DNA of 41,599 nucleotides, taken from the NCBI GenBank assembly GCA_041738725.1, contig JBGSPG010000022.1, forward strand, positions 1 through 41,599, given 5' to 3'. Shown in pieces: positions 5,729 through 34,668 of the stretch (position 1 is its first letter; each line of letters begins with the position of its first letter). Source of the stretch: Candidatus Saccharimonadales bacterium (GTDB lineage: Bacteria; Patescibacteriota; Saccharimonadia; Saccharimonadales; UBA7683). Made by a program: the position numbers and the translations under genes. Under the pieces are notes generated by a model. The model did not search any database. It was given only the letters and a program-made list of their open reading frames with translations, and had not been told where the DNA came from.

Positions 5729-6149
5729 AGTATTCATAGGGGCGGGAATTTGTGTAATTGGTGCCCTATTATTTTTTGCGATAACTTCGCAAAAACAGCT
5801 TGTACCACTAACGATAGGTGGACAAAGTCTTAATGTAGAAATTGCGAATACGTCGCAAAAAAGAGAACAGGGTTTATGTTGCCGAGAGAACTTACCTTCT
5901 GATCAGGGTATGTTGTTTGTGTATGACTCACCTGGCGATTATCGATTTTGGATGAAAGACACTCAGATTCCGCTCGATATGTTTTGGATTGATTCTAAGA
6001 AGTCTGTTGTACATATAGAAGAGAACGTGCAGCCGAGCAGCTATCCGCAAACGTTTGGCACAAGTATTCCAGCACAATATGTACTTGAAACAAACGCAGG
6101 ATTCGCAAAAGAGTACGGTATTAAAAATCGCGACAAAGTCGCATTTTAG
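5688..6149 (+). CDS. DUF192 domain protein with an N-terminal membrane anchor
   Basis: TM helix, then LPSDQGMLFVY...FWMKDTQIPLDMFWID, typical of DUF192; the start is uncertain (overlaps the rimK end by 41 nt; an alternative GTG lies near 5721). Confidence 0.65.
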   Translation: MRNGIIKKIRLVRKVFIGAGICVIGALLFFAITSQKQLVPLTIGGQSLNVEIANTSQKREQGLCCRENLPSDQGMLFVYDSPGDYRFWMKDTQIPLDMFWIDSKKSVVHIEENVQPSSYPQTFGTSIPAQYVLETNAGFAKEYGIKNRDKVAF

Positions 6150-6200
6150 AAAAACCACGTATGCTTCCTCCCCTATGCCAAATCTGATACCATTAGCAGT

Positions 6201-6683
6201 ATGGTAGATATTATTGCACCCGTTGTGGTCCTTCTTGTTGTCTTGGTTGTTGTTCTTCATAGAACCAGTGCTGGCGTTGCCGTATTGGCATTACTTGCAG
6301 GTGTACTTTTAGACCAGCTGCTCAGTGCGTGGGTGATAGCAGCGCTGCCATCACAGCAGGCCCCACTTAATATATATGTTTCTGTAGTCGTACATCTGCT
6401 GATTACGTTCACTCCAATGGTGGTGGCTCTGGCATTTGTAAAGGCGACTCGTCAATCTCTAATTGTCCCGATATTAACAGGGCTTGTCCTGGGTTTCTTG
6501 GTTGTGTACTTTGGCCTAAGGATTGTTGCTCCGCTTCCTGCGGTTACTAAAGTTGCAAATAAATCAGGGTTGATTACGTTCTTGGGCCCATATCAGAACG
6601 CAATACTAGCAGCCAGCGCGGTGCTAGCAATTCTAGCTATGGTGATAGATCACCGCAAAATCAGAGGCAAAAAAGACAAATAA
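6201..6683 (+). CDS. Hypothetical polytopic membrane protein
   Basis: 160 aa, almost entirely hydrophobic helices, basic C-terminus (HRKIRGKKDK); no recognisable family motif. Confidence 0.5.
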   Translation: MVDIIAPVVVLLVVLVVVLHRTSAGVAVLALLAGVLLDQLLSAWVIAALPSQQAPLNIYVSVVVHLLITFTPMVVALAFVKATRQSLIVPILTGLVLGFLVVYFGLRIVAPLPAVTKVANKSGLITFLGPYQNAILAASAVLAILAMVIDHRKIRGKKDK

Positions 6684-6762
6684 CATTGCCTTTAACCTGT
6701 TATTATGAGAAAATACCCTAGTCTTCGTCAAACGGCGAACCGTACATTCCATTCTAAAATAA

Positions 6763-6783
6763 GGGCCAGTAGCTCGGCTGCCC
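6763..6783 (+). pseudogene. Internally deleted remnant of tRNA-Lys (5' acceptor/D-stem fused to the 3' acceptor strand)
   Basis: GGGCCAGTAGCTCgGCTGCCC equals tRNA positions 1-13 joined to GGCTG(G)CCC of the 3' end; the upstream ATAA context is also duplicated relative to the intact gene at 6890. Confidence 0.6.
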
Positions 6784-6820
6784 TTAAAAACACAGTTGTT
6801 AAAAAATAGATAATAAGCCT

Positions 6821-6832
6821 GTGCTCTAACCA
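6821..6832 (-). repeat. Inverted 12-nt fragment of the tRNA-Lys D-arm
   Basis: GTGCTCTAACCA is the exact reverse complement of TGGTTAGAGCAC in the tRNA at 6906-6917. Confidence 0.5.
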
Positions 6833-6889: not shown

Positions 6890-6966
6890 GGGCCAGTAGC
6901 TCAGCTGGTTAGAGCACCTGCCTTTTAAGCAGGGTGTCCCGGGTTCAAGTCCCGGCTGGCCCTCCA
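6890..6966 (+). tRNA. tRNA-Lys (anticodon UUU), CCA encoded
   Basis: Cloverleaf read by eye: acceptor GGGCCAG/CTGGCCC, D-stem GCTC/GAGC, anticodon stem CCTGC/GCAGG with loop CTTTTAA (anticodon TTT), T-stem CCGGG/CCCGG with loop TTCAAGT, discriminator T plus CCA. Confidence 0.9.
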
Positions 6967-7018
6967 ATATGGTTATGTTTAAAAGACGCGAAAGCGTCTT
7001 TTTTGGTATGATGAACAC
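6956..7018 (+). repeat. Junction repeat A (native tRNA 3' end + GAAA-loop terminator + extended -10)
   Basis: CTGGCCCTCCA-ATATGGTTATGTTTAAAAGACGC-GAAA-GCGTCTTTTTTGgTATGAT, then 6 nt to ATG 7019. Confidence 0.75.
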
Positions 7019-7693
7019 ATGAACCAACCTTCAATAAGTATCGTCATCCCAGCCTTCAACGAGGCTAAGAATATCGAACCGTGCATTAAAGCTATCCGGC
7101 CTCAACTTAAAGATGGTGATGAGCTTATTGTAGTTGATAACAACTCAATCGATGCTACAACAAAGCTAGCTAAACAATGTGGTGCAATTGTCCTGTATGA
7201 AGGAAAACAGGGTATAAGCTATGCTCGCAATAAAGGATTTAATTCAGCCAAGAACCCCATTATTGCTCGAACAGATGCCGATACGATTATTGGTGAGGAT
7301 TGGCTTGATAGTATACGTGAATATTATCAACAAGAAGATCTCCAAGATAATGCTGTAGGCGGTCCAGTGTACCTTAAAGAGTTCTTACCACTCAGGTTAG
7401 GCGTCCATCAGGGACTCACTAAGAAGATGCTTGGTCATGAAACCTTAATTGGTGGTAATTTTGCTCTATCAAAAAGTCTATGGGATAAAGTAAAAGGCAG
7501 AGTAAGTAATGACGATAGTATGTACGCCGAAGATATGGAGTTGGCAATTCTCATAACCAAGAGTGGCGGGCAAGTTGAGTTTCTGCCATCAATGATTGTC
7601 GCAACATCAGCTCGTTGGATGATACGGCATCCAATACACTCGCTTACTACTTGGCGAGCAAAGACCAAACAGACTAAGCGGCTGCAATTCTAG
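7019..7693 (+). CDS. Family 2 glycosyltransferase (cassette 1)
   Basis: ISIVIPAFNEAKNI, LIVVDNNSID, ARTDADT (DxD-like): typical GT-A/GT2 blocks. Confidence 0.8.
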   Translation: MNQPSISIVIPAFNEAKNIEPCIKAIRPQLKDGDELIVVDNNSIDATTKLAKQCGAIVLYEGKQGISYARNKGFNSAKNPIIARTDADTIIGEDWLDSIREYYQQEDLQDNAVGGPVYLKEFLPLRLGVHQGLTKKMLGHETLIGGNFALSKSLWDKVKGRVSNDDSMYAEDMELAILITKSGGQVEFLPSMIVATSARWMIRHPIHSLTTWRAKTKQTKRLQF

Positions 7694-7710
7694 TTCCGAT
7701 AGCATCTACG

Positions 7711-7750
7711 ATGGCCCTCCACGAATGAACCGTCCTTTTGGACGGTTTTT
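7711..7750 (+). repeat. Junction repeat B (core + different hairpin terminator, no following ORF)
   Basis: ATGGCCCTCCA (7711-7721), then CCGTCC-TTTT-GGACGG (7729-7744) plus a T-run. Confidence 0.6.
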
Positions 7751-7892
7751 TCGTGGTAAGGTTTGCCGAGATTTTTACCCGAGACACTCCAGGGTGTCGT
7801 GGGTGAAAAAAGCCAGTGGCATTTTGCAAGAGAATCTTACAGATTGACCACTTGTTGGCAGTATGTAAATTCTGGGGTCGCGCTAGTGTGAC

Positions 7893-7999
7893 CAAGTCCC
7901 GGCTGCCTGCGCACCGAAGCTATTGCGAAGGAGTGGCCCTCCAACACGCTTACGTTAAAACAGAGGTAATTAACCTCTGTTTTTGATATACTCTAAGTC
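7893..7999 (+). repeat. Junction repeat C (longer tRNA 3' fragment split by a 29-nt insertion + hairpin + extended -10)
   Basis: CAAGTCCCGGCTG (7893-7905, identical to tRNA 6946-6958), a 29-nt insert, then GGCCCTCCA (7935-7943), ACACGCTTACGTTAAAACAGAGG-TAATTAA-CCTCTGTTTTTGaTATACT, then 7 nt to ATG 8000. Confidence 0.75.
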
Positions 8000-8572
8000 A
8001 TGAAAACAGTTCTATTCATTCCAGGATTCCAAGAAGATATCAACACACGCGACTATAAAAGCACCCTTAAGGCTATCGCCAGTAAAGGTTATAAAGTCAA
8101 ATTCGTGCCTATAAGGTGGGCAAGAACCACCATAAAGGACTGGGTTATGGAGCTAGACAAAGAATACAAAAAACATGACCCAACCCAGACAATACTTGCT
8201 GGTTTTTCATACGGATCAATGACAGCATTCATGTCGGCTGTTAAGGAAAATCCCTCCGAACTCTGGCTATTTTCCTTTTCTCCGTATTTTTCTGACGACA
8301 TGCCACATATGAAGAAATCCTGGCTTAATAACATTGGTCACCGTCGAGCTGATGCATTTAGGCAACTGGACTTCAATGAGTTAGCAAAAAGTATTAAATG
8401 CAAAACACTGATTGTGGTTGGTGAAGCTGAGGCAGTGAAATATCCACTGATAGGCAATAGAGCACTTGTTGCCAGTCAAACCATAGTCAATAATACGCTT
8501 GTTACTGCCCCACAGAGTGGTCACGACGTAACAGACGAAAACTATATAAAAACTATTGAGAACGCCATCTAA
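8000..8572 (+). CDS. Small alpha/beta-fold hydrolase (cassette 3)
   Basis: 190 aa; nucleophile elbow GFSYGS (GxSxG), C-terminal SGHDV as candidate catalytic His. Confidence 0.6.
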   Translation: MKTVLFIPGFQEDINTRDYKSTLKAIASKGYKVKFVPIRWARTTIKDWVMELDKEYKKHDPTQTILAGFSYGSMTAFMSAVKENPSELWLFSFSPYFSDDMPHMKKSWLNNIGHRRADAFRQLDFNELAKSIKCKTLIVVGEAEAVKYPLIGNRALVASQTIVNNTLVTAPQSGHDVTDENYIKTIENAI

Positions 8573-8596
8573 GCTAGCGTTGCAATAATCTTCATC

Positions 8597-8661
8597 ATGG
8601 CCCTCCAATACGCTTATGCTTAAACTTCTCTTTCTGAGGAGTTTTTTGTTAATATTAAACA
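8597..8661 (+). repeat. Junction repeat D
   Basis: ATGGCCCTCCA-ATACGCTTATGCTT, hairpin AAACTTCTC(8622-8630)/GAGGAGTTT(8636-8644), T-run, TGtTAATAT (-10 at 8650-8655), then 6 nt to ATG 8662. Confidence 0.75.
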
Positions 8662-9057
8662 ATGCCTACTAATGCAGAATCATTTGTAATTAAGCCTTCT
8701 GGAATCCCTGCCTCTGGATCAGGTGTATTTGCTACTCACTGCATAAAAGCAGGAGACTACTTAGCGTTCAAACCAAAAAATACTACTATAGGTATCGTTC
8801 GTTCTGAGAATGATATACCGAGGAAATTTCTATCTTTATGTATTGCTCGAGATGATGGCAAATACCTATGTCCTGCTGATTTTGAGAACATTGAGACCGT
8901 GTGGTATCTTAATCACTCTAGCTGCCCTAACGCAGAGCAACGAAGCGATGGCTATTATGCCCTAAGCGACATTCCTAGAGGAGAAGAAATACTTATAGAT
9001 TACAATATATTTAACGAACCAGAAGATAAAAAGGAGGATTTTTATCGTAGTAGATAA
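8662..9057 (+). CDS. SET-domain protein (putative protein lysine methyltransferase; cassette 4)
   Basis: 131 aa; LNHSSCPNAE (NHSCxPN-like pseudoknot motif) and GEEILIDY (ELxxDY-like). Confidence 0.75.
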   Translation: MPTNAESFVIKPSGIPASGSGVFATHCIKAGDYLAFKPKNTTIGIVRSENDIPRKFLSLCIARDDGKYLCPADFENIETVWYLNHSSCPNAEQRSDGYYALSDIPRGEEILIDYNIFNEPEDKKEDFYRSR

Positions 9058-9077
9058 AGGTTGCGATATCATTCACT

Positions 9078-9144
9078 GTGGACCTCCAATACCGGTTATG
9101 TTTAAACAGAGGTAATAGGCCTCTGTTTTTGATACAATCAAGTC
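9078..9144 (+). repeat. Junction repeat E
   Basis: GTGGACCTCCA-ATACCGGTTATGTTTAAACAGAGG-TAATAGG-CCTCTGTTTTTGaTACAAT (-10 at 9133-9138), then 6 nt to ATG 9145; the hairpin is homologous to the one in repeat C. Confidence 0.75.
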
Positions 9145-9456
9145 ATGCAAGTTTTAGTCGAACTATTAAACCTGACTGAAATACAAAGATTATCACTACC
9201 TTCCAATTTCAAATATGGACAAGCCATTTATATTCGTGGTGCGGTCGAGTTTATAAGCAATGAACCGCTAGAAGTGGAGGCGTGGGTAGGGGGACTTGAT
9301 GGAGCAGTTATAGAAGGTGGCGGTTCGCGTCGCCGGGCTTACTTGTTTGTAACAAAAGAAGGCCTCTCGTGGCATTGCACTGGCAATCCTAAGAACCATG
9401 ATATTTTTTGCAAGCATTGTGTGGCACTAGCCCTAGCAGTTCTAGGCAATCAATGA
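9145..9456 (+). CDS. SWIM zinc-finger-like small protein (cassette 5)
   Basis: 103 aa; C-terminal WHCTGNPKNHDIFCKHCVALALAVL resembles the CxC...CxH SWIM signature followed by the usual hydrophobic helix. Confidence 0.5.
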   Translation: MQVLVELLNLTEIQRLSLPSNFKYGQAIYIRGAVEFISNEPLEVEAWVGGLDGAVIEGGGSRRRAYLFVTKEGLSWHCTGNPKNHDIFCKHCVALALAVLGNQ

Positions 9457-9492
9457 GATAGAATTCCTGACTATATTTGTAATAGCGTCTAA

Positions 9493-9560
9493 ATGGCCCT
9501 CCAGTACCGGCCATTTTAGAAAGACGTGAAAGTGTCTTTTCTGATATTATTAGGCGACTT
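9493..9560 (+). repeat. Junction repeat F (last copy)
   Basis: ATGGCCCTCCA-GTACCGGCCATTTTAGAAAGACGT-GAAA-GTGTCTTTTCTGaTATTAT (-10 at 9545-9550), then 10 nt to ATG 9561; the GAAA-loop hairpin is homologous to the one in repeat A. Confidence 0.75.
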
Positions 9561-10136
9561 ATGAAGACAAACAACAGTCAAGAATTAATCGTAGATTCAT
9601 CATTAACTGTGGAAGAGGCGCTTCGCCAAAATCCTGATTCTGTATGCCCGCCCGAAGTTATCGCTGAGCTCGAATTGTTCAACGTTCACTACTATTCGTT
9701 TGATGGTCGGATACACATCGGTCAAATTGTTGCACACAAAGATCTCGTAGAAGACATTAAAACTGCTTTTAATATTATGTTGGCTGAACGATTTCCTACA
9801 CAGTCAGCTATTCCAATTGCAGACGAGAGGTTCGGGTGGGACGATACTGCTTCAACTTCAGCAAATAATACGTCAGCTTTTAACTATCGAAACGTAAGGA
9901 ACACCAATGAAATTTCAAATCATGCTGCAGGCAGAGCAATAGATATAAACCCACTGCTAAACCCATACTTTCCTGGTGAAAAGGTATTTCCTGCACATGC
10001 CTCGTATGACCAAACAGTTCCCGGGACGATATTGGCGGGAAGTAGTTTGGTGCAGCATTTTACAGACTTGGGATGGGTTTGGGGTGCTAGCTGGGCCGAC
10101 GACCCCGATTACCAGCATTTCGAGAAATTAGCATAG
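9561..10136 (+). CDS. M15-family (LAS-type) zinc peptidase, D-Ala-D-Ala carboxypeptidase / cell-wall peptidase-like
   Basis: SNHAAGRAIDINP (H-x6-D zinc motif) and C-terminal DPDYQHFE (third His). Confidence 0.7.
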   Translation: MKTNNSQELIVDSSLTVEEALRQNPDSVCPPEVIAELELFNVHYYSFDGRIHIGQIVAHKDLVEDIKTAFNIMLAERFPTQSAIPIADERFGWDDTASTSANNTSAFNYRNVRNTNEISNHAAGRAIDINPLLNPYFPGEKVFPAHASYDQTVPGTILAGSSLVQHFTDLGWVWGASWADDPDYQHFEKLA

Positions 10137-13014: not shown

Positions 13015-14478
13015 ATGAAGAGGTGGGCCACTTTTATGCCAACTCGTCCTACCTGGATTGGCGCCGGGTTACTTGGTATTTGCGTCGGATTGTACGTAGG
13101 AAGATTCACCCAAGTATCACTTTCCGTAGTCCTGGTTGTTATTGTTGTTCTACTTTTGGTTACATATAAAGTTCGCAGATGGCACACTATACTTTTACTC
13201 TGCTTAGTTAGCGGTTGTTGTCTGGGTCTAATTAGGGGTCAGCAGTATGCGCAGCGAGTTTCAGTTTACAGTCAGTACTTCGGTGAACCTGTTGTTCTGC
13301 AAGGGAGGGTCTCTGATGATGCCGGATATGATAAAAATAAGCTAACAGAATTTCATATTAATAATGTCAGTATTGACGAGTCCTCGCTGCCTGGCAGGGT
13401 TAGGGTTCGTGCACTGAGTGCAACTGGTATCAGTCGTGGAGATAGCGTAGAGGTCCGCGGTACACTCAGAAAAACCCTCGGGACTAGTCGCCAAGGTTCA
13501 ATAAGTTACGGTCAAGTTACGATACTAAAAAATAACACCAGCGTTGCAGAATCACTGCGAGCGCGGTTTTTCACTGCTATTTACTCTAGCTTGCCAGAGC
13601 CGCAAGCAAGTCTTGGGCTTGGATACCTTGTAGGTGTACGCACGGCTTTACCGCCCGAATTTGCAGTAGCACTCTCTGCTATTGGGCTAACGCATATTGT
13701 TGCGGTGAGCGGTTATAATCTGACGATAATTGTTCAGTTTGTAAAACGCCTGTTCGAGAAGGTATCTGCATACCAAACTGTCTTATTCTCCGTGTTATTA
13801 ATCGCCGGTTTTTTAGTTGTAACTGGGTGGAGTCCAAGTATTATGCGTGCTGCAATTATCTCGGGCTTTAGTTTGCTGGCTTGGTATTACGGACGTTCAT
13901 TTCAGCCGCTGATAATAATTCTACTCGGCGCAGCACTGACGGGTTTTGCAAACCCACTCTATATTTGGGGCGATGTTGGCTGGTACCTATCGTTCCTAGC
14001 CTTCACTGGAGTTCTATTGGTTGCACCACTCATACTGTTCTTTCTTGGACCACGGTATGCAAAAAACTTTTTGCTACTAATTCTTTTAGAAACACTTTCT
14101 GCACAACTACTAACTGTGCCGTATATTGCATATATTTTTGGGCGCATTTCCGTCATATCGCCACTCGCTAATATGATAGTAATTCCATTTATCCCAGTTT
14201 CAATGTTGCTGGTATTCGTTACTGGTGTGGTTGGTATGTTTGCACCTGCCCTTGCGCTGTGGGTAGCCGTTCCTGCACGAATAATTATGACACTTACAGT
14301 CTGGGTAGTGCAAAAACTAAGTAGTGCACCATGGGCTCAGCGAACGATTAAGCTTTCAATATACCAAGTCGTTATGTTGTACCTAGTCATGGCTCTTGCC
14401 ATCATTCTGGGATGGGTTGTTTATAGAAGGCGTGTTGCACGTGGACATGAAGCAGCAATAGATTGGAATCTGTTATAA
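13015..14478 (+). CDS. comEC: ComEC/Rec2-family DNA internalisation channel (short form)
   Basis: N-terminal OB/DUF4131-like region, then the competence domain with GLTHIVAVSGYNLTI; 487 aa with no C-terminal metallo-beta-lactamase domain; TGcTAGTAT lies 6 nt upstream of the ATG. Confidence 0.85.
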   Translation: MKRWATFMPTRPTWIGAGLLGICVGLYVGRFTQVSLSVVLVVIVVLLLVTYKVRRWHTILLLCLVSGCCLGLIRGQQYAQRVSVYSQYFGEPVVLQGRVSDDAGYDKNKLTEFHINNVSIDESSLPGRVRVRALSATGISRGDSVEVRGTLRKTLGTSRQGSISYGQVTILKNNTSVAESLRARFFTAIYSSLPEPQASLGLGYLVGVRTALPPEFAVALSAIGLTHIVAVSGYNLTIIVQFVKRLFEKVSAYQTVLFSVLLIAGFLVVTGWSPSIMRAAIISGFSLLAWYYGRSFQPLIIILLGAALTGFANPLYIWGDVGWYLSFLAFTGVLLVAPLILFFLGPRYAKNFLLLILLETLSAQLLTVPYIAYIFGRISVISPLANMIVIPFIPVSMLLVFVTGVVGMFAPALALWVAVPARIIMTLTVWVVQKLSSAPWAQRTIKLSIYQVVMLYLVMALAIILGWVVYRRRVARGHEAAIDWNLL

Positions 14479-25664: not shown

Positions 25665-27446
25665 ATGAAGATTGTTGATAAAACTACAAAGCAGTTATTG
25701 CTGGACCATAAGAAGCTTTCAGAAGCCGACCTTACAAAGCTTTCTGCAGTAAGTGTTCAGCAGAAAAAGACGCTTCAAGACATTGCTATTAAGCGTGGCG
25801 TGGTTACTGAAGAAGAGCTTGATTTATGGTATTCAGATGTTATTGATATACCCTATGTCCAAATTGAAACAACTAAGATAGATCCAGAGTACCTAAAGCT
25901 CATTCCTGAGCGAATTGCTCGACGATATAAGGCTATTGTATTCGGCGAAAAAGACGGCATCTATAAGCTTGCAATGGAAGATCCAGACGATGTCGAGGCG
26001 GTAGATTTTTTGCAGAAGCAACTAAAAGCAAAACCTACGCTGTACCTCGCGACAAAACAAAATATTAGTTCAGCGCTAGAACTATATCGTGGTGACATGA
26101 GCGGCGAACTTACGAAAGTAATGGCAGACGATGTCGACGGTGAAGGCGAGCAGGTTGAAGTAAGCGAGGAAGATCTTGCTGAAGATTCGCCGATTGCACA
26201 GACAGTGACACTTTTAATCGAGTATGCAATTAAGTCTGGTGCATCTGATATACATATAGAACCACGAGAAGAATATGTTCAAATTCGCTACCGTGTTGAT
26301 GGCGTACTTAAAGAGGCAGACAAGTTACCTAAAAAGGTCCAGGCAGCTCTGACAAGCCGTATTAAAATTTTAGCAAATCTTAAAATTGATGAACGGCGAA
26401 TCCCACAGGACGGAAGATTCAAAATAACACAGGCGGGCAAAATGTTTGCCCTGCGTATTTCAACATTACCGATCGCTGATGGCGAAAAGGTAGTAATTCG
26501 CTTGCTCGATGAATCCAACAAGGCACTCTCTATGGAGGCGCTTGGGTTCTGGGGCACATCACTTAACACTATCAACAACGCTATTATTCAGCCACATGGT
26601 ATGGTGCTGGTTACAGGCCCAACTGGCTCCGGTAAGTCGACTACCCTGTTTAGCGTTCTCTCACTCCTAAATAATCACACGGTTAATATTTCTACTGTCG
26701 AAGATCCGATTGAGTATCGAATTCTCGGGGCAAATCAGACACAGGTTAACGTAAAAGCTGGGATGACATTTGCATCCGGGCTTCGGGCGCTGCTTCGTCA
26801 AGATCCAAATATTATTATGGTGGGTGAGATCCGTGATGGTGAGACCGCAGACATGGGCGTCCAGGCCGCACTTACCGGACACTTGGTGTTCTCAACCCTG
26901 CATACAAATAATGCAGCCACATGTCTACCGCGCCTTCTCGATATGGGTATAGAGCCGTTCTTAATCGCCTCAACAGTACGAGCCGTTATCGGTCAGCGAC
27001 TTGTGCGGCATGCCTGTCCTGAATGCCGCATTTCGTATGTTCCAAATCACGAAGAGCTAGAAGAAATCAGTAAGATGTTTGGTGTCGGATCCGCTGAAGA
27101 CTTAAAGAAGATTAATGATTTAGAAAAAGTTGCACAATCTCATGGCGTTGGTAAAAAAGATACTGATCTTGCAACAGACGGTAAAAAGATTACTCGACTC
27201 TGGCACGCCAGCGAAAAAGGATGCGATGCCTGTAATGGTAATGGATACAAAGGGCGTATCGGTATTTACGAGGTGCTTGAAAACACTGTTGATATTCAAC
27301 ACTTAATTATGGGCAATACAACGAGTGATGTTATTCAAGATGAATGCATTAAGGCGGGTATGGTTACTATGCAGATGGATGGGCTTATAAAAGCACTCCG
27401 TGGTGAAACAACAGTTGAAGAAATTTTGAGGGTAACGAGAGAATAG
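25665..27446 (+). CDS. pilB: Type IV pilus assembly ATPase PilB (GspE family)
   Basis: N-terminal T2SSE_N domain, Walker A GPTGSGKST, Asp box, Walker B IIMVGEIRD, His box, tetracysteine CPEC...CDAC. Confidence 0.9.
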   Translation: MKIVDKTTKQLLLDHKKLSEADLTKLSAVSVQQKKTLQDIAIKRGVVTEEELDLWYSDVIDIPYVQIETTKIDPEYLKLIPERIARRYKAIVFGEKDGIYKLAMEDPDDVEAVDFLQKQLKAKPTLYLATKQNISSALELYRGDMSGELTKVMADDVDGEGEQVEVSEEDLAEDSPIAQTVTLLIEYAIKSGASDIHIEPREEYVQIRYRVDGVLKEADKLPKKVQAALTSRIKILANLKIDERRIPQDGRFKITQAGKMFALRISTLPIADGEKVVIRLLDESNKALSMEALGFWGTSLNTINNAIIQPHGMVLVTGPTGSGKSTTLFSVLSLLNNHTVNISTVEDPIEYRILGANQTQVNVKAGMTFASGLRALLRQDPNIIMVGEIRDGETADMGVQAALTGHLVFSTLHTNNAATCLPRLLDMGIEPFLIASTVRAVIGQRLVRHACPECRISYVPNHEELEEISKMFGVGSAEDLKKINDLEKVAQSHGVGKKDTDLATDGKKITRLWHASEKGCDACNGNGYKGRIGIYEVLENTVDIQHLIMGNTTSDVIQDECIKAGMVTMQMDGLIKALRGETTVEEILRVTRE

Positions 27447-27455
27447 GATTAGCAT

Positions 27456-28679
27456 ATGAGTCAATTTAGCTATGTTGCGACAAAAAAGAATGGCGAAAGC
27501 GAGAAGGGTACTATTGAAGCCGATGATCAGGCTGCTGCGCTAGAGGCTGTCCGCAAATTAGGCCTTCATCCACTCTCGGTACGTCCTGCTCGTAAAGGCG
27601 CGGGGCTTGGCTCGATGTCTATAGGTAGTAAGGTAAAAGTTAAAGACCTGGTTATTTTCACTAGGCAGCTGGCAACACTTGTTAATGCAGGTGTTCCGCT
27701 GGTACGCTCGCTCAGTACATTACAGATGCAGTCTGAGAACCAAGTCTTAAAGAAGCAGCTAGGGGTGATTGTTAAGAAGGTCGAGGCTGGGTCTTCGCTT
27801 GGCGATGCCCTAGAGGTGTATCCAAAAACATTCTCACCAATTTATGTGAATATGGTTAAAGCTGGTGAAGAAGGTGGTATTTTGGACGAGGTATTAAATA
27901 GACTTGCAGTCCAGCAAGAAAAAGATGCAGCCATACGCGGCAAAATTAAAAGTGCCATGACGTACCCGGCAGTCATCTCGTTCATTACATTCGTTGCGTT
28001 CTTCTTCTTGATGACAACAATTGTGCCGAAGATTGGTGATATTATTGTCAGCCTTGGTGGTACAAAGGATTCGCTGCCGATTTACACAAAAGTGCTTCTC
28101 AGTATTAGTGTAATATTAAAGTCACCGAGTTTTTTACTTGCACTTTTGGTTGGCCTTCCAATATTTATAGTGGGCTTTAAAAAGTACACAAGTACACCTA
28201 AAGGTAGGTATGTTTGGCATTCGGTTTTACTTCGGACGCCAATAATTAAGACTCTTAATACAAAAGTAGCTATTGCACGTTTTGCCAGAACCTTTTCTTC
28301 CCTAATGGGAGCTGGGGTTTCAATAGTTCAGGCGATTAATACTACTGCTGGCGCCATTGGCAACGCAGTTATAGAAAAAGAGTTACTCGATAGTGCCAAG
28401 GCAATACAGTCGGGAGAACAACTGTCCACACAGCTTGAAAAAAGTAAGCATTTCCCTCCTCTGGTTAGCCAGATGCTTGCTGTTGGTGAAGAGACTGGCC
28501 AGACAGATCAGATTCTTATAAAAGTTGCTGAATTTTATGAAGAAGAGGTAGACACATTTGTTGGAGCATTGTCATCAATTTTAGAGCCCATCATGATTGT
28601 TGTTCTTGGAAGTATTGTCGGAGTGATTGCGGCTAGTGTGTTCGGGCCTATCAGTAACATCTCTAATAACATTCAGTAG
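27456..28679 (+). CDS. pilC: Type IV pilus platform protein PilC (GspF family)
   Basis: Two T2SSF repeats (LATLVNAGVPL...; FSSLMGAGVSIVQAI...), three TM segments, 407 aa. Confidence 0.9.
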   Translation: MSQFSYVATKKNGESEKGTIEADDQAAALEAVRKLGLHPLSVRPARKGAGLGSMSIGSKVKVKDLVIFTRQLATLVNAGVPLVRSLSTLQMQSENQVLKKQLGVIVKKVEAGSSLGDALEVYPKTFSPIYVNMVKAGEEGGILDEVLNRLAVQQEKDAAIRGKIKSAMTYPAVISFITFVAFFFLMTTIVPKIGDIIVSLGGTKDSLPIYTKVLLSISVILKSPSFLLALLVGLPIFIVGFKKYTSTPKGRYVWHSVLLRTPIIKTLNTKVAIARFARTFSSLMGAGVSIVQAINTTAGAIGNAVIEKELLDSAKAIQSGEQLSTQLEKSKHFPPLVSQMLAVGEETGQTDQILIKVAEFYEEEVDTFVGALSSILEPIMIVVLGSIVGVIAASVFGPISNISNNIQ

Positions 28680-28725
28680 TGGTAAAAGTTTTACACAGGT
28701 TTCACGCTGATCTGTTATTTACCTG

Positions 28726-28754
28726 TTGACAAGTATATAAGCATAAGCAATAAT
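28726..28754 (+). promoter_or_regulatory. Promoter of the major pilin gene
   Basis: TTGACA (28726-28731), 17-nt spacer, AATAAT (28749-28754); about 70-nt leader ending in a strong AAGGAGG RBS. Confidence 0.55.
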
Positions 28755-28767
28755 CATGTACAGGACA

Positions 28768-28785
28768 GAACAGCTTAAGCTGTTC
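28768..28785. promoter_or_regulatory. Perfect 18-nt palindrome in the pilA 5' leader (operator or 5' stabilising hairpin)
   Basis: GAACAGCTT|AAGCTGTTC, starting about 8 nt downstream of the predicted transcription start. Confidence 0.45.
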
Positions 28786-28826
28786 GCCGAAAAAATACCA
28801 ATACACCTAAGGAGGGTGGGCAAAAT

Positions 28827-29237
28827 ATGAAAAGAACTAAATTAGGTTCACAAGGTTTCACAATCGTAGAACTTTTGATCGTTATTGTGATCATTGGTAT
28901 CTTGGCAACAATTGGTTTTGTGTCTTTCTCAAGCGCACAGAACAAAGCAAAAAAGAGCAAAGCTCAGTCAACAGTTTCACAAGTTAAATCTAAACTTGGT
29001 GAATACTTCTCTGAAAACAACTCTTACCCAGAAGATAAAGCTGGTGTAGTTTCATACCTAGCAGGTAACGGTGGTGCTACAACATCAACAGAGTTCAGTG
29101 CAGCAGCTTATGGCTACGCAGCAGAACCAACTGGTTGTACAACTGCAGCTGATGACTGTACTACATTTACACTTACAGCAGCAAAGACTTACTGGAACGG
29201 TGATACCGCTGATACAGATATCTCAGTTACTCCGTAA
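28827..29237 (+). CDS. pilA: Major type IV pilin
   Basis: MKRTKLGSQG/FTIVELLIVIVIIGILA (class III signal, Glu+5), 136 aa, C-terminal Cys pair (CTTAADDC). Confidence 0.85.
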   Translation: MKRTKLGSQGFTIVELLIVIVIIGILATIGFVSFSSAQNKAKKSKAQSTVSQVKSKLGEYFSENNSYPEDKAGVVSYLAGNGGATTSTEFSAAAYGYAAEPTGCTTAADDCTTFTLTAAKTYWNGDTADTDISVTP

Positions 29238-29249
29238 TTACGAGTACAT

Positions 29250-29292
29250 CTAGTTATAAAAAGAGCCACTCAGTGGCTCTTTTTATAACTAG
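29250..29292 (+). terminator. Very strong hairpin terminator/attenuator after pilA
   Basis: A 20-bp perfect inverted repeat, CTAGTTATAAAAAGAGCCAC-TCA-GTGGCTCTTTTTATAACTAG, with a T-run in the descending arm. Confidence 0.8.
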
Positions 29293-29332
29293 TGTATCTG
29301 GCTTGGTAGATGGTATTATAGACACAAGCACT

Positions 29333-30826
29333 ATGAATAAATTTCGAACGATGAAGGAGGATGGGTTTACAATTGCCGAACTGGTGGTTTCAATGGTTAT
29401 TTTAATAACCTTTTCGCTCGGTGTCATGGGTACGTACTTTATTATGGTAGGATCTGCGGCAACAGCACGAATGAAGTCCGCAGGACTTTCACTTGCAACC
29501 GAGCAGTTAGAGTACCTCCGGTCACTTCCATATGATCAATTGGCAACTCAGGGCGGTGCGATTAATACAACTGGAGCAAAACTGCCTCCAACAAAAGAAC
29601 GTACGGTTGGGCCGTATACGTTCGTCGTTACGACAGCCATCAATTACGCAGATGACGCATTTGACGGCTGTCTTATCTATCCAAGTGCACAAAGTTATCT
29701 TTGTAGAAACGGGCCCATAAAAACAGGTACTCCTGTTGACGCTAATCCGAGAGACTACAAAATTATTGACGTATTCGTAAAGGAGAAGAACTCGAATAAA
29801 GAAGCCTCCAGGGTGAGCACCCAGATTGCGGCTCGGGTGGCAGAGACTGGCGGAGGCACTGGGGCAATAGTTGTTTCCGTTGTAGACTCCACGGGTCAGG
29901 TTATTGGTGACGCTCAGGTTACTGTTGTGAATACCACGGTAACCCCAAATATTAACCAAACGATTAATACAGATGTAAATGGTGTGGCACTGTTCTTAGA
30001 CGTAACTCCCGATAGTGGTAAGGACTATATTGTATCGGTATCGAAATCGGGGTACAGCAGTCTATCTACCATACCGGTATCCGGTAGCTTATTGCCGACA
30101 TACCCAAATATAAGCGTTATATCACAGCAGGTTACGAGTTCAACAATGAAGATAGATCGAACTGCTACGGATAGCTTGCTGATACGCATAGTCGATACTT
30201 CGGGCAATCCGATTTCCGGCAGTTCATTCTCTATTCGCGGTGGGGTAAAGTTATATACAAGCGTTGCTGACCAAAGCTATGGTTACACACAGACAGGAGT
30301 CACGACAAACATAAGTGGAGAATACTTGTTTAATAACCTAACACCTGGGCAGTATCAGGTTTGCTACACAAGCAGTCTTTGTTCGCCAGGAAGATACCTC
30401 GTCTCGGCTCAGGCAATGTATGGGTCTCAATCTTGGCAACCGTTTACAGTAGACGCCGGAGTTATTAACCAAAACGGTACACTACCGATGCAGACAGTCG
30501 TCCTCACCACTACAAGCTCATCTTCGTTCCCGCGGGTATCAAGCACGAGCCCAAGTAGTATATCTTCGGCAAGTGGTACACTCGGCGAGGTTGAGGTAAT
30601 TATTAATGGCTCAAACCTCATAGGCGCAGTAGTTTTTATGCGACAGTCTGCCGTTCAAGTCCCAGGTACACTTATTGGTACTGATTCGGCGAGTTCAATT
30701 AGAAGATCCTTCGACTTAACCGGTAAAACCGGCGCGTGGGAGCTCGTTGTTACTACAGGTAGCGGTACGGTAATGCAGGATGGACTACTACCTGGTACAC
30801 TCGGAGGTTTTAATGTCACGCCGTAG
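29333..30826 (+). CDS. Large pilin-like protein with carboxypeptidase-regulatory-like (Ig-like beta-sandwich) repeats
   Basis: MNKFRTMKEDG/FTIAELVVSMVIL prepilin N-terminus; repeats such as VVSVVDSTGQVIGDAQVTVVN...TDVNGVA and IRIVDTSGNPISGSSFSIRGG; start moved from 29273 because that codon lies inside the pilA terminator. Confidence 0.65.
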   Translation: MNKFRTMKEDGFTIAELVVSMVILITFSLGVMGTYFIMVGSAATARMKSAGLSLATEQLEYLRSLPYDQLATQGGAINTTGAKLPPTKERTVGPYTFVVTTAINYADDAFDGCLIYPSAQSYLCRNGPIKTGTPVDANPRDYKIIDVFVKEKNSNKEASRVSTQIAARVAETGGGTGAIVVSVVDSTGQVIGDAQVTVVNTTVTPNINQTINTDVNGVALFLDVTPDSGKDYIVSVSKSGYSSLSTIPVSGSLLPTYPNISVISQQVTSSTMKIDRTATDSLLIRIVDTSGNPISGSSFSIRGGVKLYTSVADQSYGYTQTGVTTNISGEYLFNNLTPGQYQVCYTSSLCSPGRYLVSAQAMYGSQSWQPFTVDAGVINQNGTLPMQTVVLTTTSSSSFPRVSSTSPSSISSASGTLGEVEVIINGSNLIGAVVFMRQSAVQVPGTLIGTDSASSIRRSFDLTGKTGAWELVVTTGSGTVMQDGLLPGTLGGFNVTP

Positions 30827-31406
30827 CCGGAATCAAGTAGGCTTCACCATTTCTGAAATGGTCATCGTAATTAGTTTACTTTCAATTGTAGCGATCTTAT
30901 TTGCTAATTTTTTCAGCGATAATTACAAGTCGTATATTCAGCTGCAGCAAAATACCGTTCGTGTTAATACACTTAGTAGTGCAAGTCAACGCATCGCCCG
31001 GGTACTACGGGGCCTGACTACAATTTCCACTGCCGAACCCACCGATATTACAGGATACGCGTACTTTACCCCACGGGATACTACTCTTTCGCGGGTCCGG
31101 TACTATTTTGACGGATCAAGTAATAGTATTAAGGTTAGTGTTATTCCTGCAAGCGGTACCGCACCGAATTATGTCTATAACAGTGCAAGTGAGCGCGTTA
31201 CAACTATTGCTGAAAACATAGACGGTACGGTTGCTATATTTACATACCTCGACACGGCTAACCAGCCTGCCACATTCACAACTGATACGTATAAAGACAT
31301 TAAAGGCATTGGGCTGCATCTTAAGGGCAGTACCGTTGCAGGGTATTCAAGTCCGTTTGAAATAAAAACATCAATCTCACTACGAAACAGAAAGACTAAT
31401 TTATGA
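30813..31406 (+). CDS. Minor pilin / pseudopilin
   Basis: MSRRSRNQVG/FTISEMVIVISLL; GGAGG 6 nt upstream of ATG 30813; overlaps the upstream stop. Confidence 0.65.
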   Translation: MSRRSRNQVGFTISEMVIVISLLSIVAILFANFFSDNYKSYIQLQQNTVRVNTLSSASQRIARVLRGLTTISTAEPTDITGYAYFTPRDTTLSRVRYYFDGSSNSIKVSVIPASGTAPNYVYNSASERVTTIAENIDGTVAIFTYLDTANQPATFTTDTYKDIKGIGLHLKGSTVAGYSSPFEIKTSISLRNRKTNL

Positions 31407-32917
31407 AGCTGCGCCTAAATCAAAATGAAGGATTTATTATACCCGCACTACTGGTGGTTATAGTTACTTTTAGCGTGTTACTGATTGGCCTGGGCGATGT
31501 TATTAATAATACACTTGGTGATGCTGCTCGAACTCAATCAAAACAAATGTCACTCAACATTGCCGAGGCGGGTATTAATTACTATCTATGGCATATTAGC
31601 CATAGCCCCACCGATTACAAAGACGGAAACACAACTCCAGCAACTCCAGACCCAAACCTTGGGTATGGGCCCTATGTACGCACCTATAGAGACGCGAACG
31701 GTGTAGAAAGAGGGACCTTCACATTATACATACAACCCGATACTACGGGATCTAATTTGGTGACCGTCAGGTCAATTGGCAAGTCGAGTAACCTGTTAAA
31801 TACTACGCGTACGGTGGAAGCTAAAATCGGCGCACCATCTTTTAGTACTTATGCAGTTGTCGGTAACTCAGAGCTTTGGTTCGGCTCTACTGAGACCGCC
31901 GACGGCCCCGTGCATTCGAATGCGGGCGTAAAGATGGACGGTCCCAATAATAGTGATGTAACAAGCGCGAATACAACATATATTCCATCTTCTACAAGCG
32001 GCCCAGGTTCCGGTACTAGTCAGTCGGGTGTCTGGTGTAATACTTCAGTTTCAACACCAAACTGTAACACGCGGTCAAAGGCGAGTTGGCGGTACCCCGT
32101 TGCAAGCGTCGATTTCAATAAGGTGACTGCGGATCTGTGCCAGCTCAAAAAGAACGCAACTAACAACCAGGCTTCAAATGCTTGTAGTGCGAGGCCAGCC
32201 CGAACTGGATCGTATATTCCAGCACGTACAAATAACTTTTCTATAAATAGTGGCTACCTAATAATTCTAAATACGAACGGCACTTACAGTTTGCGCTCCG
32301 TTACAAATGAACGAGATGATCGAGCAAATTACAGCGCTGCACTCAGTAGCACGGTAATTGCAAATAATATCGCAATTCCGGCCAATGGAGTTATCTTTGT
32401 TGAAGATAATGTATGGGTACTTTCTGAGTCGGGTGGGTTTAATGGCAGGGTTACCATTGCCTCGGCTCGATTAGCCACGAGTGGCTCGACAACTATTACT
32501 GTCGCCGATAAGCTGGCCTATCAAGATCAGTATAACGGTAACGATGTGATTGGGTTGATAGCAGAAAACGACGTCGATATTGCACCCTATGTGCCCATAC
32601 CCCTAACAGTACATGCAGCCATGATTGCACAATCTGGTAGGGTACAGTTTCGACCGCAGTACAACTACAACGGTAACAATACACCAGGCTATATAAACAC
32701 AAACCAGACGCTCAAGTTTTTTGGCTCAATAGCGTCGAACGAACAATGGACCTGGTCGTGGATCCGTTGCGGCAGCAACAGTACTGCTTGCTGGAGCGGT
32801 TTTAAGAATAACGAAACTAAGTATGATGAAAACTTACGTTACAGACCACCACCAAGCTTTCCGGTTACGAGTACATACGACATTTTAGAATGGCGAGAGA
32901 TTATTATAGCTCCGTAG
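31403..32917 (+). CDS. Large pilus-associated protein with a PilX-like N-terminal helix
   Basis: MKLRLNQNEG/FIIPALLVVIVTF, then a 480-aa Ser/Thr/Asn-rich secreted domain; ATGA overlap with the upstream gene. Confidence 0.5.
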   Translation: MKLRLNQNEGFIIPALLVVIVTFSVLLIGLGDVINNTLGDAARTQSKQMSLNIAEAGINYYLWHISHSPTDYKDGNTTPATPDPNLGYGPYVRTYRDANGVERGTFTLYIQPDTTGSNLVTVRSIGKSSNLLNTTRTVEAKIGAPSFSTYAVVGNSELWFGSTETADGPVHSNAGVKMDGPNNSDVTSANTTYIPSSTSGPGSGTSQSGVWCNTSVSTPNCNTRSKASWRYPVASVDFNKVTADLCQLKKNATNNQASNACSARPARTGSYIPARTNNFSINSGYLIILNTNGTYSLRSVTNERDDRANYSAALSSTVIANNIAIPANGVIFVEDNVWVLSESGGFNGRVTIASARLATSGSTTITVADKLAYQDQYNGNDVIGLIAENDVDIAPYVPIPLTVHAAMIAQSGRVQFRPQYNYNGNNTPGYINTNQTLKFFGSIASNEQWTWSWIRCGSNSTACWSGFKNNETKYDENLRYRPPPSFPVTSTYDILEWREIIIAP

Positions 32918-32962
32918 TAATTAGTTGCGATCAGAGCTGAAAACAGTTATGCTTAGTACAAG

Positions 32963-34039
32963 ATGAAGACGCCATTGTTCTATCATAAGAAGCCTGTATT
33001 TGGTCTCGACATTGGGTCGCAGGCTGTAAAGGTGATGCAGCTTGAATCGAGTGGTAAACATGCTCACGTTAGGGCATATGGTAGCATTAGCACTGACGAA
33101 AAAATGATGAAAGACGGCGTTATTAGCAATATACCTGGTGCCGCTAAGCTGATTGATGAACTGCTCGCTGATCATATGAACGGTACATTAACTACAAATC
33201 GTGTTGTTATGAGTGTACCGGTTTCACACGTGTTCACCAGAGTACTCACTCTGCCGTTAATGTCAAAAAAGGAACTGGCCGATGCGGTTCAACTTGAAGT
33301 TGAACAATCCGTTCCTGTTGCACCTAAGAATTTGTATTACGACTTTGAGACTATTGATATCGGTGATCCAAATAATTTACTCATACGGATGGTGGCGGTC
33401 CCGAAGGCAATCGTAGATTCATATTCAGCAGTTTGTGAGCTTCTCAACTTAGATCTTGCGCTCATACAAACTAATATTCGTGCTGATGCACAGCTTTGTA
33501 TGCTGTACGAAGACCTGGAGTCTAATAACCCTTATATTATTCTTGATGTCGGCGGGAACGCCATAGATATCGGTATATTAGATGAAACACTCCGTGTGAC
33601 TGGTACGGTGGATGAAGGCGGTAATAGCTTAACTGACGCGATTGCTAAGGCACTGCATGTATCCCCCGCAAAAGCCCATCACATTAAAGTCACGCAGGGT
33701 CTGGGTGCTGGTGCGCAGCAAAAAAAGATTCTCACAGCAGTATCGCCAATACTGGATAAGGTTATAAAAGAAATTGAAAAAATGGTTCGTTTCCATCAAG
33801 AGCGAATTAAGCCCGGTAGTGAAATATCACAGATTTTGATTGTCGGTGGTGGCGCTAATATGCCAGGCTTTGGTGATTACCTAACAAATGCGACTCATAT
33901 TGCAACAAGACTGTCTTCACCTTGGGGTGGGCACATCACATTTGGCAATTTGGAACCACCCGAATCGGCAGATCTACCACGATTCCTAACCTGTGCAGGC
34001 TCTGCCGTGGCTTCAGATAAAGAGGTGTTCGGGTTATGA
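32963..34039 (+). CDS. pilM: Type IV pilus assembly protein PilM (actin-like ATPase fold)
   Basis: FGLDIGSQAVKVMQL, ILDVGGNAIDI, ILIVGGGANMPG phosphate/adenosine motifs. Confidence 0.85.
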   Translation: MKTPLFYHKKPVFGLDIGSQAVKVMQLESSGKHAHVRAYGSISTDEKMMKDGVISNIPGAAKLIDELLADHMNGTLTTNRVVMSVPVSHVFTRVLTLPLMSKKELADAVQLEVEQSVPVAPKNLYYDFETIDIGDPNNLLIRMVAVPKAIVDSYSAVCELLNLDLALIQTNIRADAQLCMLYEDLESNNPYIILDVGGNAIDIGILDETLRVTGTVDEGGNSLTDAIAKALHVSPAKAHHIKVTQGLGAGAQQKKILTAVSPILDKVIKEIEKMVRFHQERIKPGSEISQILIVGGGANMPGFGDYLTNATHIATRLSSPWGGHITFGNLEPPESADLPRFLTCAGSAVASDKEVFGL

Positions 34040-34668
34040 TCAATTTATTACCGCCCCAGCAACTCGCAAACATTCGTATCGCAAGAAGCAATACACTACT
34101 CCGGAGGTATATAGAACTAGTACTACTTGCGCTACTCGTAATAATTACTGCACTGACGGCAGGGTATTATTTCATGAATGTCCAGCAGTCTAATGTTCAG
34201 CTTGTAGTTGAGGCAGATCAAAAAAAGATTGCAGAACTTGAGCCGGTACAGAAGCAAGCCGAGCAACTCTCCAGTACGGTGAATACGATCGCAGGCTTGT
34301 TTTCCAGAGATGTGCCGTTCTCAGACATGCTAGTCCAAATTGGCGGGTTAATGCCACAGGGTGCAGTACTTACGGGTCTTCAATTTTCTATTGAAGATTT
34401 TAAATCACCGCTTGTCATTAGCGCACAGGTAGACTCAGAGGCAAAGGCAGCTATACTTTTAAAAAATTTACAGAGTTCAGAATTGTTTAAGAGCGCAGAA
34501 ATAAAAACAATCGATCAGGTTGAACAAGATGAATCAACAAGCTCACCAACTACATTAGCTCCAGCTACAGCATCCCAGATAGCAGACAGTCAGTATAAGT
34601 TCACAACAGTTATTAATGCGTACTTCAAGCAGAACCAAACACCCGCAAGTACGAAGGTGGGTCAATAA
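34036..34668 (+). CDS. pilN: PilN-like pilus assembly protein
   Basis: MINLLPPQQ... N-terminus, single TM, coiled coil; ATGA overlap with pilM. Confidence 0.7.
   Translation: MINLLPPQQLANIRIARSNTLLRRYIELVLLALLVIITALTAGYYFMNVQQSNVQLVVEADQKKIAELEPVQKQAEQLSSTVNTIAGLFSRDVPFSDMLVQIGGLMPQGAVLTGLQFSIEDFKSPLVISAQVDSEAKAAILLKNLQSSELFKSAEIKTIDQVEQDESTSSPTTLAPATASQIADSQYKFTTVINAYFKQNQTPASTKVGQ

Follow-up and report, generated by a model that had tools for sequence, protein, structure and literature searches.

A tandem array of single-gene cassettes at the 3' end of tRNA-Lys in Saccharibacteria and a candidate family of serine recombinases

The window analyzed here, a 41,599-nucleotide (nt) stretch of DNA from Candidatus Saccharimonadales bacterium (assembly GCA_041738725.1, contig JBGSPG010000022.1, forward strand), carries a gene for tRNA-Lys(UUU) followed directly by a tandem array of small, mostly single-gene cassettes that are separated by repeats of the tRNA 3' end. 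On balance, we favor the explanation that cassettes without a recombinase gene of their own accumulated one after another, by site-specific insertion at the 3' end of tRNA-Lys, with a family of serine recombinases moving them in trans. In the window and in related loci, the repeats share a defined anatomy, and cassettes are replaced and reassorted at the core of the repeat. Members of the recombinase family occupy the same site, and one of them lies on a contig with a circular signature.

Structure of the cassette junctions

The core repeat, TGGCCCTCCA, is the 3' end of the tRNA-Lys gene. Exact copies start at positions 6957, 7712, 7934, 8598 and 9494, and a copy with one mismatch (TGGACCTCCA) starts at 9079, all of them within 2.6 kb. 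With up to one mismatch allowed, eight occurrences were observed across the whole 41.6-kb window, compared to 1.37 expected, and none of 100 shuffled sequences reached eight. An earlier, sequence-only reading of the window had reported five copies beyond the tRNA itself, one of them with a mismatch; this stands, except that each start coordinate was given one base low. That reading missed the 21-nt arm in front of the core, and the repeat is thus larger than first described.

The pooled junctions of the window and related loci consist, in this order, of the 21-nt arm, the 10-nt core, a spacer, a variable terminator hairpin and an extended -10 promoter box. The arm consensus, TAGTTGCGATAGCGTCTACGA, is common to 140 unique junctions, the spacers are of two main types (ATACGCTTATGCTTAAA or AGCATAAGCAtTATGAAAG), and the conserved span of arm, core and spacer amounts to about 50 bp. 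The clearest arm of the window, at 7691-7711 (TAGTTCCGATAGCATCTACGA), is the only match to the consensus there, with two mismatches, and the other window arms are more diverged. The arm motif is restricted to the array within the window, and so is the combined core-plus-arm motif; within the window, there is thus no sign of the genome-wide scatter that had been named beforehand as grounds for abandoning the cassette interpretation. A genome-wide uptake sequence was considered and rejected because the arm is found in the array only. Both common spacer types hold the same word of about 10 nt in opposite orientation (CGCTTATGCT vs AGCATAAGCG; L087-L141; window 8608-8624); in one orientation this word is an inverted repeat of the arm, and in the other, a direct repeat of it.

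The module downstream of the core is as previously described, with a spacer, hairpins that pair up between repeats A and F (AAGACGyGAAAGyGTCTT) and between repeats C and E (CAGAGG-N7-CCTCTG), and TGnTAnnnT boxes. In the window cassettes, this box lies 7-12 nt upstream of each ATG, after the terminator; among 152 family flanks it was found in 79, vs 23 in shuffled controls. These are direct pattern counts, since extended -10 promoters and most of the hairpins seen here escape the overly stringent tool scan for sigma-70 promoters and terminators. The spacings also agree with the earlier claim: stop-to-core distances in the window are 18, 25, 21 and 37 nt, and CCA-to-ATG distances are 52, 56, 54, 56 and 57 nt.

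The arm opens with TAG. Of about 105 cassette genes, 22 stop at this codon and four more stop at a second TAG in the same frame; the remaining open reading frames (ORFs) never extend beyond the arm start. The use of the arm TAG as a stop suggests that the arm is joined directly to the ends of coding sequences, a hint at how cassettes are formed. The glycosyltransferase ORF of cassette 1 is the window example, stopping at the TAG of its arm (7691-7693). The second TAG lies 9 nt after the first and acts as a back-up stop. A hairpin or attC-like fold of the arm was rejected: mutual information reflects subfamily structure only, with no Watson-Crick covariation. The conserved recombination determinant is the upstream arm together with the core, and the hairpins are variable terminators that do not belong to it. 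Rfam searches returned no match for the junctions.

Cassettes are exchanged at the tRNA-derived core

A 17.9-kb locus of assembly GCA_018061375.1 (L001) is syntenic with the window on both sides of the array and identical to it through the tRNA up to CCA. After CCA, a deaminase gene, a 76-amino acid (aa) gene and a 314-aa gene stand in place of those of the window; homology sets in again at the hairpin before the M15 peptidase gene, and the link from this gene to the next is kept. The alignment of the interval between tRNA-Lys and the M15 gene, suggested earlier as a check, thus reveals cassette replacement, and gene order is not invariant. In a more distant genome (L004), five exact cores delimit four units after tRNA-Lys(CUU), and the spacers and hairpins are homogenized within the genome. 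The M15 gene is the first cassette in L004 (9862-10604, with a core on both sides), in contrast to its position as a fixed post-array flank in the window and L001. The proposal that the last repeat and the M15 gene are the ancestral flank of the tRNA is accordingly supported by L001, which has the same hairpin and M15 gene, and called into question by L004.

Scanning metagenomes with the arm-plus-core motif yielded 55 loci, nearly all with further cores on the same strand (at most 10 cores in 8.6 kb), and 17 of these arrays begin at tRNA-Lys. Exact cores are present in 90 of the 103 junctions that were found via the arm alone. The units range from 0.2 to 2.5 kb, mostly with one gene, and 77% of the genes are co-oriented. 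Their cargo is highly diverse: 152 array proteins fall into 133 clusters, and a Pfam scan of 150 array proteins identified 106 families, led by GNAT, NUDIX, 2'-5' RNA ligase-like proteins, PIN/RelB and nucleotidyltransferases.

Between loci, the ends of homology cluster at core positions 9-11, and its starts fall at the generic arm; the exchanged unit therefore comprises spacer, terminator, promoter, gene, arm and core. Homology on one or both sides was seen in 35 junction pairs; 31 of these are homologous on one side only, several with 97-100% identity there. In one pair (L090:5165 vs L115:4102), the arms differ up to position -1 and the 170 nt after the core are identical, which places a crossover inside the 10-nt core. 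Because the tRNA has only this core in common with the cassettes, exchange appears to be site-specific rather than generally homologous, at least at the proximal junction. Repeated site-specific insertion with regeneration of the core, as put forward in the sequence-only reading, passes the test proposed with it: L001 carries different genes after CCA up to the hairpin before the M15 gene, and cassettes reassort at the core across the 55 metagenome loci.

Alternatively, the junction could be a portable block of homology that supports RecA-dependent exchange of transformed DNA, with the serine recombinases described below moving large elements only. RecA-type shuffling has been proposed for the promoter-stem-loop cassettes of T4-type phages; at least 31 nt are near-identical in all internal junctions, the window encodes ComEC, type IV pilus genes, RecA and RuvABC, and the homogenized spacers and hairpins of L004 fit such exchange. 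This explanation nevertheless appears unlikely. The tRNA and the cassettes are identical over the 10-nt core only, yet the first cassettes diverge exactly after CCA between genomes, and at least one exchange maps within the core between unlike arms. Furthermore, homology alone does not account for the addition of arm and core to a new gene, and the arm coincides with the attP arm of the recombinase elements. Reverse transcription primed by the tRNA was rejected as the origin of the CCA junction because what is exchanged begins upstream of the transcription start, taking in the terminator and the promoter as well.

Some arrays hold further peculiarities. One unit of 6.6 kb (L109) contains an IS1595-family transposase and a Replic_Relax protein (5838-6800(-) and 1374-2258), so that other mobile elements also lodge in such arrays. 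At one contig end (L156:1-31, reverse strand), two cores lie 11 nt apart, TGGCCCTCCA-AGCATACCACC-TGGCCCTCCA, which may have arisen when the assembly followed alternative junctions of a mixed population. Among viral contigs, the strict junction pattern had no matches, and the four relaxed matches were dismissed as chance, with no tRNA and no array.

Large serine recombinases at the same site

In two related loci (L135 and L104), the unit adjoining tRNA-Lys is 8.5 and 7.7 kb long, respectively, and its first gene, which reads towards the tRNA, encodes a 560-aa large serine recombinase with the Resolvase, Recombinase and Zn_ribbon_recom domains. The last 13 codons of this gene (WRARRDSNPRHSA) correspond to the 3' half of the tRNA read in antisense, starting at the core, and the far end of both elements is a canonical arm and core. 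The array of L135 contains the recombinase element and, after it, at least two small cassettes. The family comprises 597 homologs at E<=1e-20, and 95 of the 120 top matches end in the tRNA-antisense tail. Other members reside in elements of 10-12 kb with DnaD-like, FtsK-like, SRAP and Y-family polymerase genes. One (L157) is inserted in a tRNA-Lys(CUU) gene with a 3' half identical to that of the window tRNA, from which it differs by one anticodon base overall, and antisense translation of the window tRNA-Lys yields a matching tail, WRASRDLNPGHPA. Phmmer searches with sequences of Escherichia coli XerD and Hin gave no match, but missed the real recombinases of L104 and L135 as well and are therefore uninformative.

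One family member (P0138) ends instead in the antisense of core and arm, and is encoded on an 8,060-nt contig (L146) with ends that overlap by 30 nt. This contig is probably an excised circular element with an attP made up of the arm, the core and the recombinase 3' end; its circularity is an assembly signature only, the overlap being equal to k-1 if, as we presume, Logan assemblies use k = 31. The recombinase ORF crosses the attachment site (L135:741-782(-), L104, L149 and L157; family P0121-P0240). The integrated gene takes its 13 C-terminal residues from antisense tRNA, with the stop in the anticodon loop, and the excised form reads the antisense arm (WRAIVDA...). Hence, the integrated and excised proteins differ at the C-terminus, and the gene is convergent with transcription of the tRNA.

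The small units might instead be what is left of full recombinase elements after the loss of nearly all their genes, never having been mobile as single genes. Deletion scars do exist, such as the 28-nt remnant at 7906-7933 of the window, the junctions of L001 are decayed, and serial insertion followed by degeneration has been documented for tycheposon islands (10.1101/2020.12.28.424599). However, more than 100 units share the compact layout of terminator, promoter, one gene and arm, a regularity that random deletion would not yield. The use of the arm TAG as a stop (22 of about 105) and the 77% co-orientation of genes also speak against decay, and, large recombinase-bearing units aside, the backbone families DnaD_N, SRAP and IMS are absent from the 25 commonest of the 106 Pfam families. 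Altogether, wholesale decay is a distinctly improbable source of the cassettes.

A housekeeping XerC/D-like recombinase that uses the core and spacer as a dif-like site, comparable to integrative mobile elements exploiting Xer (IMEX) and to Acinetobacter pdif, would explain why no integrase is encoded locally. The spacers TTATGTTTAAA and TTATGCTTAAA of the window are similar to the XerD arm of E. coli dif, which we take to be TTATGTTAAAT, although this likeness concerns the right arm and one spacer type only, and an XerC-type cut would fall just after CCA, where the breakpoints are. In the second spacer type (AGCATAAGCATTATGA), however, TTATG is shifted 4 nt further from the core, out of register, the left arm lacks the CATAA inner motif, and GC skew gives no terminus here. 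The motif is also the attP of the serine recombinase elements, and we find the Xer assignment very hard to sustain.

A function at the RNA level was considered as well, in which arm and core would form a mimic of the tRNA-Lys 3' end in 3' untranslated regions, duplicated because of its usefulness in mRNA processing or stability. The core is transcribed, its place being invariably after the stop codon and before the terminator. Yet the arm has no complementary 5' strand or covarying pairs, the motif is restricted to one locus, and the cores decay in L001. Moreover, the motif marks the points of cassette exchange and lies beside the recombinase gene on the contig with the circular signature, so we give this explanation almost no credence.

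A model of cassette accretion

A unit starts with the base that follows one core, closes with the next core and includes, in order, a spacer, a terminator for the upstream transcript, its own extended -10 promoter, usually one gene, the 21-nt arm and the 10-nt core. An internal junction (arm, core and spacer, about 50 bp) has the make-up and length of the attP of the recombinase family, with the tRNA-proximal junction corresponding to attL and the distal one to attR, and the tRNA-Lys of the window would act as the attachment site, providing the left half of attB and the core. The likely enzymes are the Saccharibacteria-wide large serine recombinases, whose own elements of 8-12 kb use the same core and the same arm. 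Small cassettes without a recombinase gene would be recombined in trans, like the recombinase-less pseudo-units of the staphylococcal cassette chromosome (SCC) or cis-mobilizable elements (CIMEs) but with integron cassettes as the match in size and cargo diversity, by a serine recombinase encoded, we infer, elsewhere in the genome of the window or brought in by a transient element. More speculatively, the spacer that a cassette leaves beside the tRNA resembles the one it displaces; if so, the tRNA-proximal site may stay competent for insertion and arrays could grow.

Several points weigh against this model. A Pfam scan of the 49 larger of the 167 window ORFs of at least 50 aa detected no recombinase and no Phage_integrase domain, as already noted in the sequence-only reading, which saw no integrase within 41 kb; the candidate enzyme comes from related arrays. 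There is likewise no recombinase in the 17.9-kb syntenic locus L001, and its junction cores are decayed, which implies that some arrays are no longer active. A recombinase was present in only two of the 55 metagenome loci, which were chosen by the junction motif itself and are therefore no guide to prevalence. The small cassettes have spacers unlike the matching half of the attP of the recombinase elements, which is coding sequence. Canonical large serine recombinases join attP to attB only, and the reaction needed here, between a tRNA-plus-spacer site and an arm-plus-spacer site, would fall outside this rule. Dyad symmetry about the core is weak, the best center, between TGG and CCC, being 0.37 complementary against a background of about 0.23. 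Finally, the 31 nt of arm and core common to all internal junctions could support some homologous exchange.

A bolder version of the model, to which we subscribe only tentatively, regards the arrays as the serine-recombinase counterpart of integrons. An enzyme acting in trans would insert and excise gene-sized, self-expressing cassettes via the site of about 50 bp, tRNA-Lys would be kept competent, growth would proceed without limit, and the tRNA-like RNA cassette described below might take part in the process or regulate it.

Comparison with known systems

SCC elements employ a large serine recombinase to insert into the 3' end of one conserved gene and form tandem units with short direct repeats, some of which lack ccr and are helped in trans. 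Similarly, the window contains five tandem units at one site, with direct repeats between them and none with a recombinase. Composite SCC islands with recombinase-less units have been described (PMC3900703). The likeness is an analogy rather than membership: the target is tRNA-Lys instead of rlmH (orfX), the host belongs to Saccharibacteria instead of staphylococci, and there is no Ccr. The units here measure 0.2-2.5 kb, compared to tens of kb in SCC, and most consist of a single gene equipped with a terminator and a promoter of its own. In addition, each repeat has a 21-nt arm in front of it, the longest arrays count at least 10 units, and the recombinase ORF reads across the site into antisense tRNA. 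Of the traits of large-serine-recombinase elements generally (phiC31, Bxb1 and SCC type), the Resolvase, Recombinase and zinc-ribbon domains are found in L135, L104 and the 597-member family, but not in the window; L135 and L104 have attL and attR boundaries (tRNA core; arm and core), and L146 has the circular signature and a probable attP.

As in integrons, there is one insertion point with co-oriented, mostly single-gene cassettes, the site is at the cassette 3' end and sometimes provides the stop codon, and the cargo is very diverse, including GNAT, NUDIX and toxin-antitoxin genes. The label "integron-like" given to the array therefore holds as a functional analogy, but none of the defining features of integrons was found. 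No IntI tyrosine recombinase adjoins the array, the candidate being a serine recombinase; there is no folded attC palindrome, the hairpins here being variable in sequence and located on the 5' side of the next cassette; and the cassettes have their own promoter and 5' terminator instead of depending on Pc, with the tRNA 3' end as the site.

CIMEs are integrase-less, att-bounded elements that are stacked beside autonomous integrative and conjugative elements (ICEs) or integrative and mobilizable elements, for example at the 3' end of streptococcal tRNA-Lys(CUU), and mobilized in trans. The window array shares the stacking of recombinase-less, att-bounded units at a tRNA-Lys 3' end; CIMEs, however, are ICE decay products of several kb, few per site and mostly associated with tyrosine integrases, whereas the units here are uniform single-gene expression cassettes. 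In the promoter early stem-loop (PeSL) cassettes of T4-type phages, repeated modules of terminator hairpin and promoter flank small ORFs and are tied to modular shuffling. That shuffling is thought to occur by homologous recombination, with no tRNA-derived core, fixed anchor or dedicated recombinase. Tycheposon islands of Prochlorococcus (10.1101/2020.12.28.424599) are also seeded at tRNAs, newcomers push older units distally, and partial tRNA repeats and decayed remnants are found in both systems. Tycheposons differ in having tyrosine recombinases, multi-kb cargo and repeats of about 40 nt, compared to a 10-nt tRNA repeat with a non-tRNA arm, gene-sized units and a serine recombinase that most units lack.

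Tandem accretion at a recombinase target, including recombinase-less units, is thus a known principle (SCC, tycheposon islands, CIMEs). New are the gene-sized insulated cassettes, the site composed of an arm and a tRNA end, the length of the arrays, their integron-like cargo and the phylum to which the host belongs. A full-text literature search with incomplete coverage retrieved no description of such arrays or of the recombinase family in Saccharibacteria. The earlier statement that no such system was known is borne out to the extent that no published description was found, and has to be qualified by the close analogs in SCC composite islands, tycheposon islands and CIME accretion.

Saccharibacteria and other Patescibacteria are epibionts with genomes of about 1 Mb and few recognized routes of gene gain. 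If the model holds, a tRNA-Lys cassette platform, seen here on contigs from the environment by the dozen, would contribute heavily to strain-level variation, and an integron-like solution, with one anchor, many gene-sized cassettes and diverse cargo, would have arisen with a different class of recombinase. The arm stop codon in about a fifth of the cassettes offers a handle on cassette creation, a problem that integron research has yet to solve. The engineering of these bacteria, for which few genetic tools exist so far, could draw on the recombinase family, whose target is short, defined and highly conserved, and on the cassettes as ready-made insulated expression units.

Units of the window array

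The features of the array and the copies of its noncoding unit are listed in Table 1.

Table 1. Features of the tRNA-Lys array and related copies of the noncoding unit
Feature	Position	Strand	Parts	Evidence
Scrambled tRNA-Lys fragments upstream of the tRNA	6763..6832	.		k-mer scan; comparison with L001
tRNA-Lys(UUU)	6890..6966	+		ARAGORN; Rfam tRNA, 72.5 bits
First core, last 10 nt of tRNA-Lys	6957-6966	+	putative attB left half plus core	
Cassette 1	6967..7721	+	spacer ATATGGTTATGTTTAAA, hairpin AAGACGCGAAAGCGTCTT and T-run, TGGTATGAT, GT2 ORF 7019-7693, arm 7691-7711, core 7712-7721	sequence; Pfam Glycos_transf_2, E 1.5e-23
Noncoding cassette	7722..7905	+		homologous copies, compensatory changes
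28-nt remnant and core	7906..7943	+	CCTGCGCACCGAAGCTATTGCGAAGGAG (truncated arm), core 7934-7943	insertion missing from all other copies of the noncoding unit
Cassette 3	7944..8607	+	spacer ACACGCTTACGTTAAAA, hairpin CAGAGG..CCTCTG, TGATATACT, ORF 8000-8572, degenerate arm, core 8598-8607	sequence, ORF list, Pfam scan
Cassette 4	8608..9088	+	spacer ATACGCTTATGCTTAAA (family consensus), terminator hairpin, SET ORF 8662-9057, arm AGGTTGCGATATCATTCACTG, one-mismatch core 9079-9088	Pfam SET, E 5e-9; terminator-like site 8622-8644
Cassette 5	9089..9503	+	spacer, hairpin CAGAGG..CCTCTG, TGATACAAT, ORF 9145-9456 (103 aa, no family), arm TTTGTAATAGCGTCTAAA, core 9494-9503	sequence, ORF list, Pfam scan
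Distal flank (putative attR side)	9504..10136	+	spacer, hairpin AAGACGTGAAAGTGTCTT, TGATATTAT, M15 peptidase ORF 9561-10136; no junction after M15	Pfam Peptidase_M15_4; L001 homology resumes at hairpin
Noncoding-unit copy	L091:102-298			
Noncoding-unit copy	L091:682-880			
Noncoding-unit copy	L091:1491-1689			
Noncoding-unit copy	L117:5408-5601	-		
Noncoding-unit copy	L123:745-950			
Noncoding-unit copy	L006:67-234			

Pfam supports three of the gene assignments made from the sequence alone, namely the family 2 glycosyltransferase (GT2), the SET-domain protein and the M15 peptidase. The similarity of the 190-aa product of cassette 3 to serine hydrolases is weak and below threshold (E 0.04-0.17), so that its designation as an alpha/beta hydrolase is not secured, and the "SWIM" assignment has no Pfam support. 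A SET gene 56% identical to that of cassette 4 is found in another tRNA-Lys array (L155/L156).

What had been taken for an empty slot is a conserved structured noncoding unit of about 185 nt (7722-7905), followed by the 28-nt remnant. The unit begins with a terminator hairpin, after which a conserved element of several hairpins leads up to a terminal fragment of the tRNA-Lys T-loop/acceptor, CAAGTCCCGGCTG (7893-7905). Copies were identified in L091 (three), L117, L123, L088, L125 and L006. The consensus fold derived from six copies has compensatory changes in 24 of 51 pairs, and a copy of L091 folds with z = -6.8, its 5' end pairing with the core-containing 3' end. Rfam has no match for this unit, which is apparently structured and could be either an RNA derived from tRNA or an additional attachment site. 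The remnant at 7906-7933 looks like the scar of a deleted cassette.

Genomic setting of the array

The window is a chromosomal fragment with a housekeeping gene content, including DnaJ, RimK, ComEC, RuvABC, RecA, type IV pilus genes and RNase Y. Upstream of tRNA-Lys are the genes for RimK, a DUF192 protein and an unknown 160-aa protein. The best match of the M15 peptidase, 87% identical, is named Candidatus Saccharibacteria bacterium; exact-protein look-ups found no identical proteins on record for the window genes. A scan of genome contigs by M15 alignment was abandoned as the family is too widespread, with mostly unrelated phyla (80) and only L007, the contig of L004, being useful. A phage origin of the window was rejected, only the tRNA matching phage records. 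The guanine-plus-cytosine content within the array (0.40-0.44) overlaps the range over the window (0.38-0.47), and the array accordingly has no foreign compositional signature; the comparison of array and flanks proposed earlier does not set it apart.

ComEC and a full type IV pilus/competence pilin cluster (13015-14478 and 25665-35267) are located less than 30 kb from the array, with RecA, RecX and RuvABC also nearby, which bears on how cassettes might enter cells. Upstream of the tRNA, positions 6763-6775 are a direct copy of tRNA bases 1-13, and positions 6821-6832 are an inverted copy of the D-arm. Both fragments lie inside a stretch of about 127 nt that is absent from L001 and look like scars of an earlier rearrangement at this tRNA.

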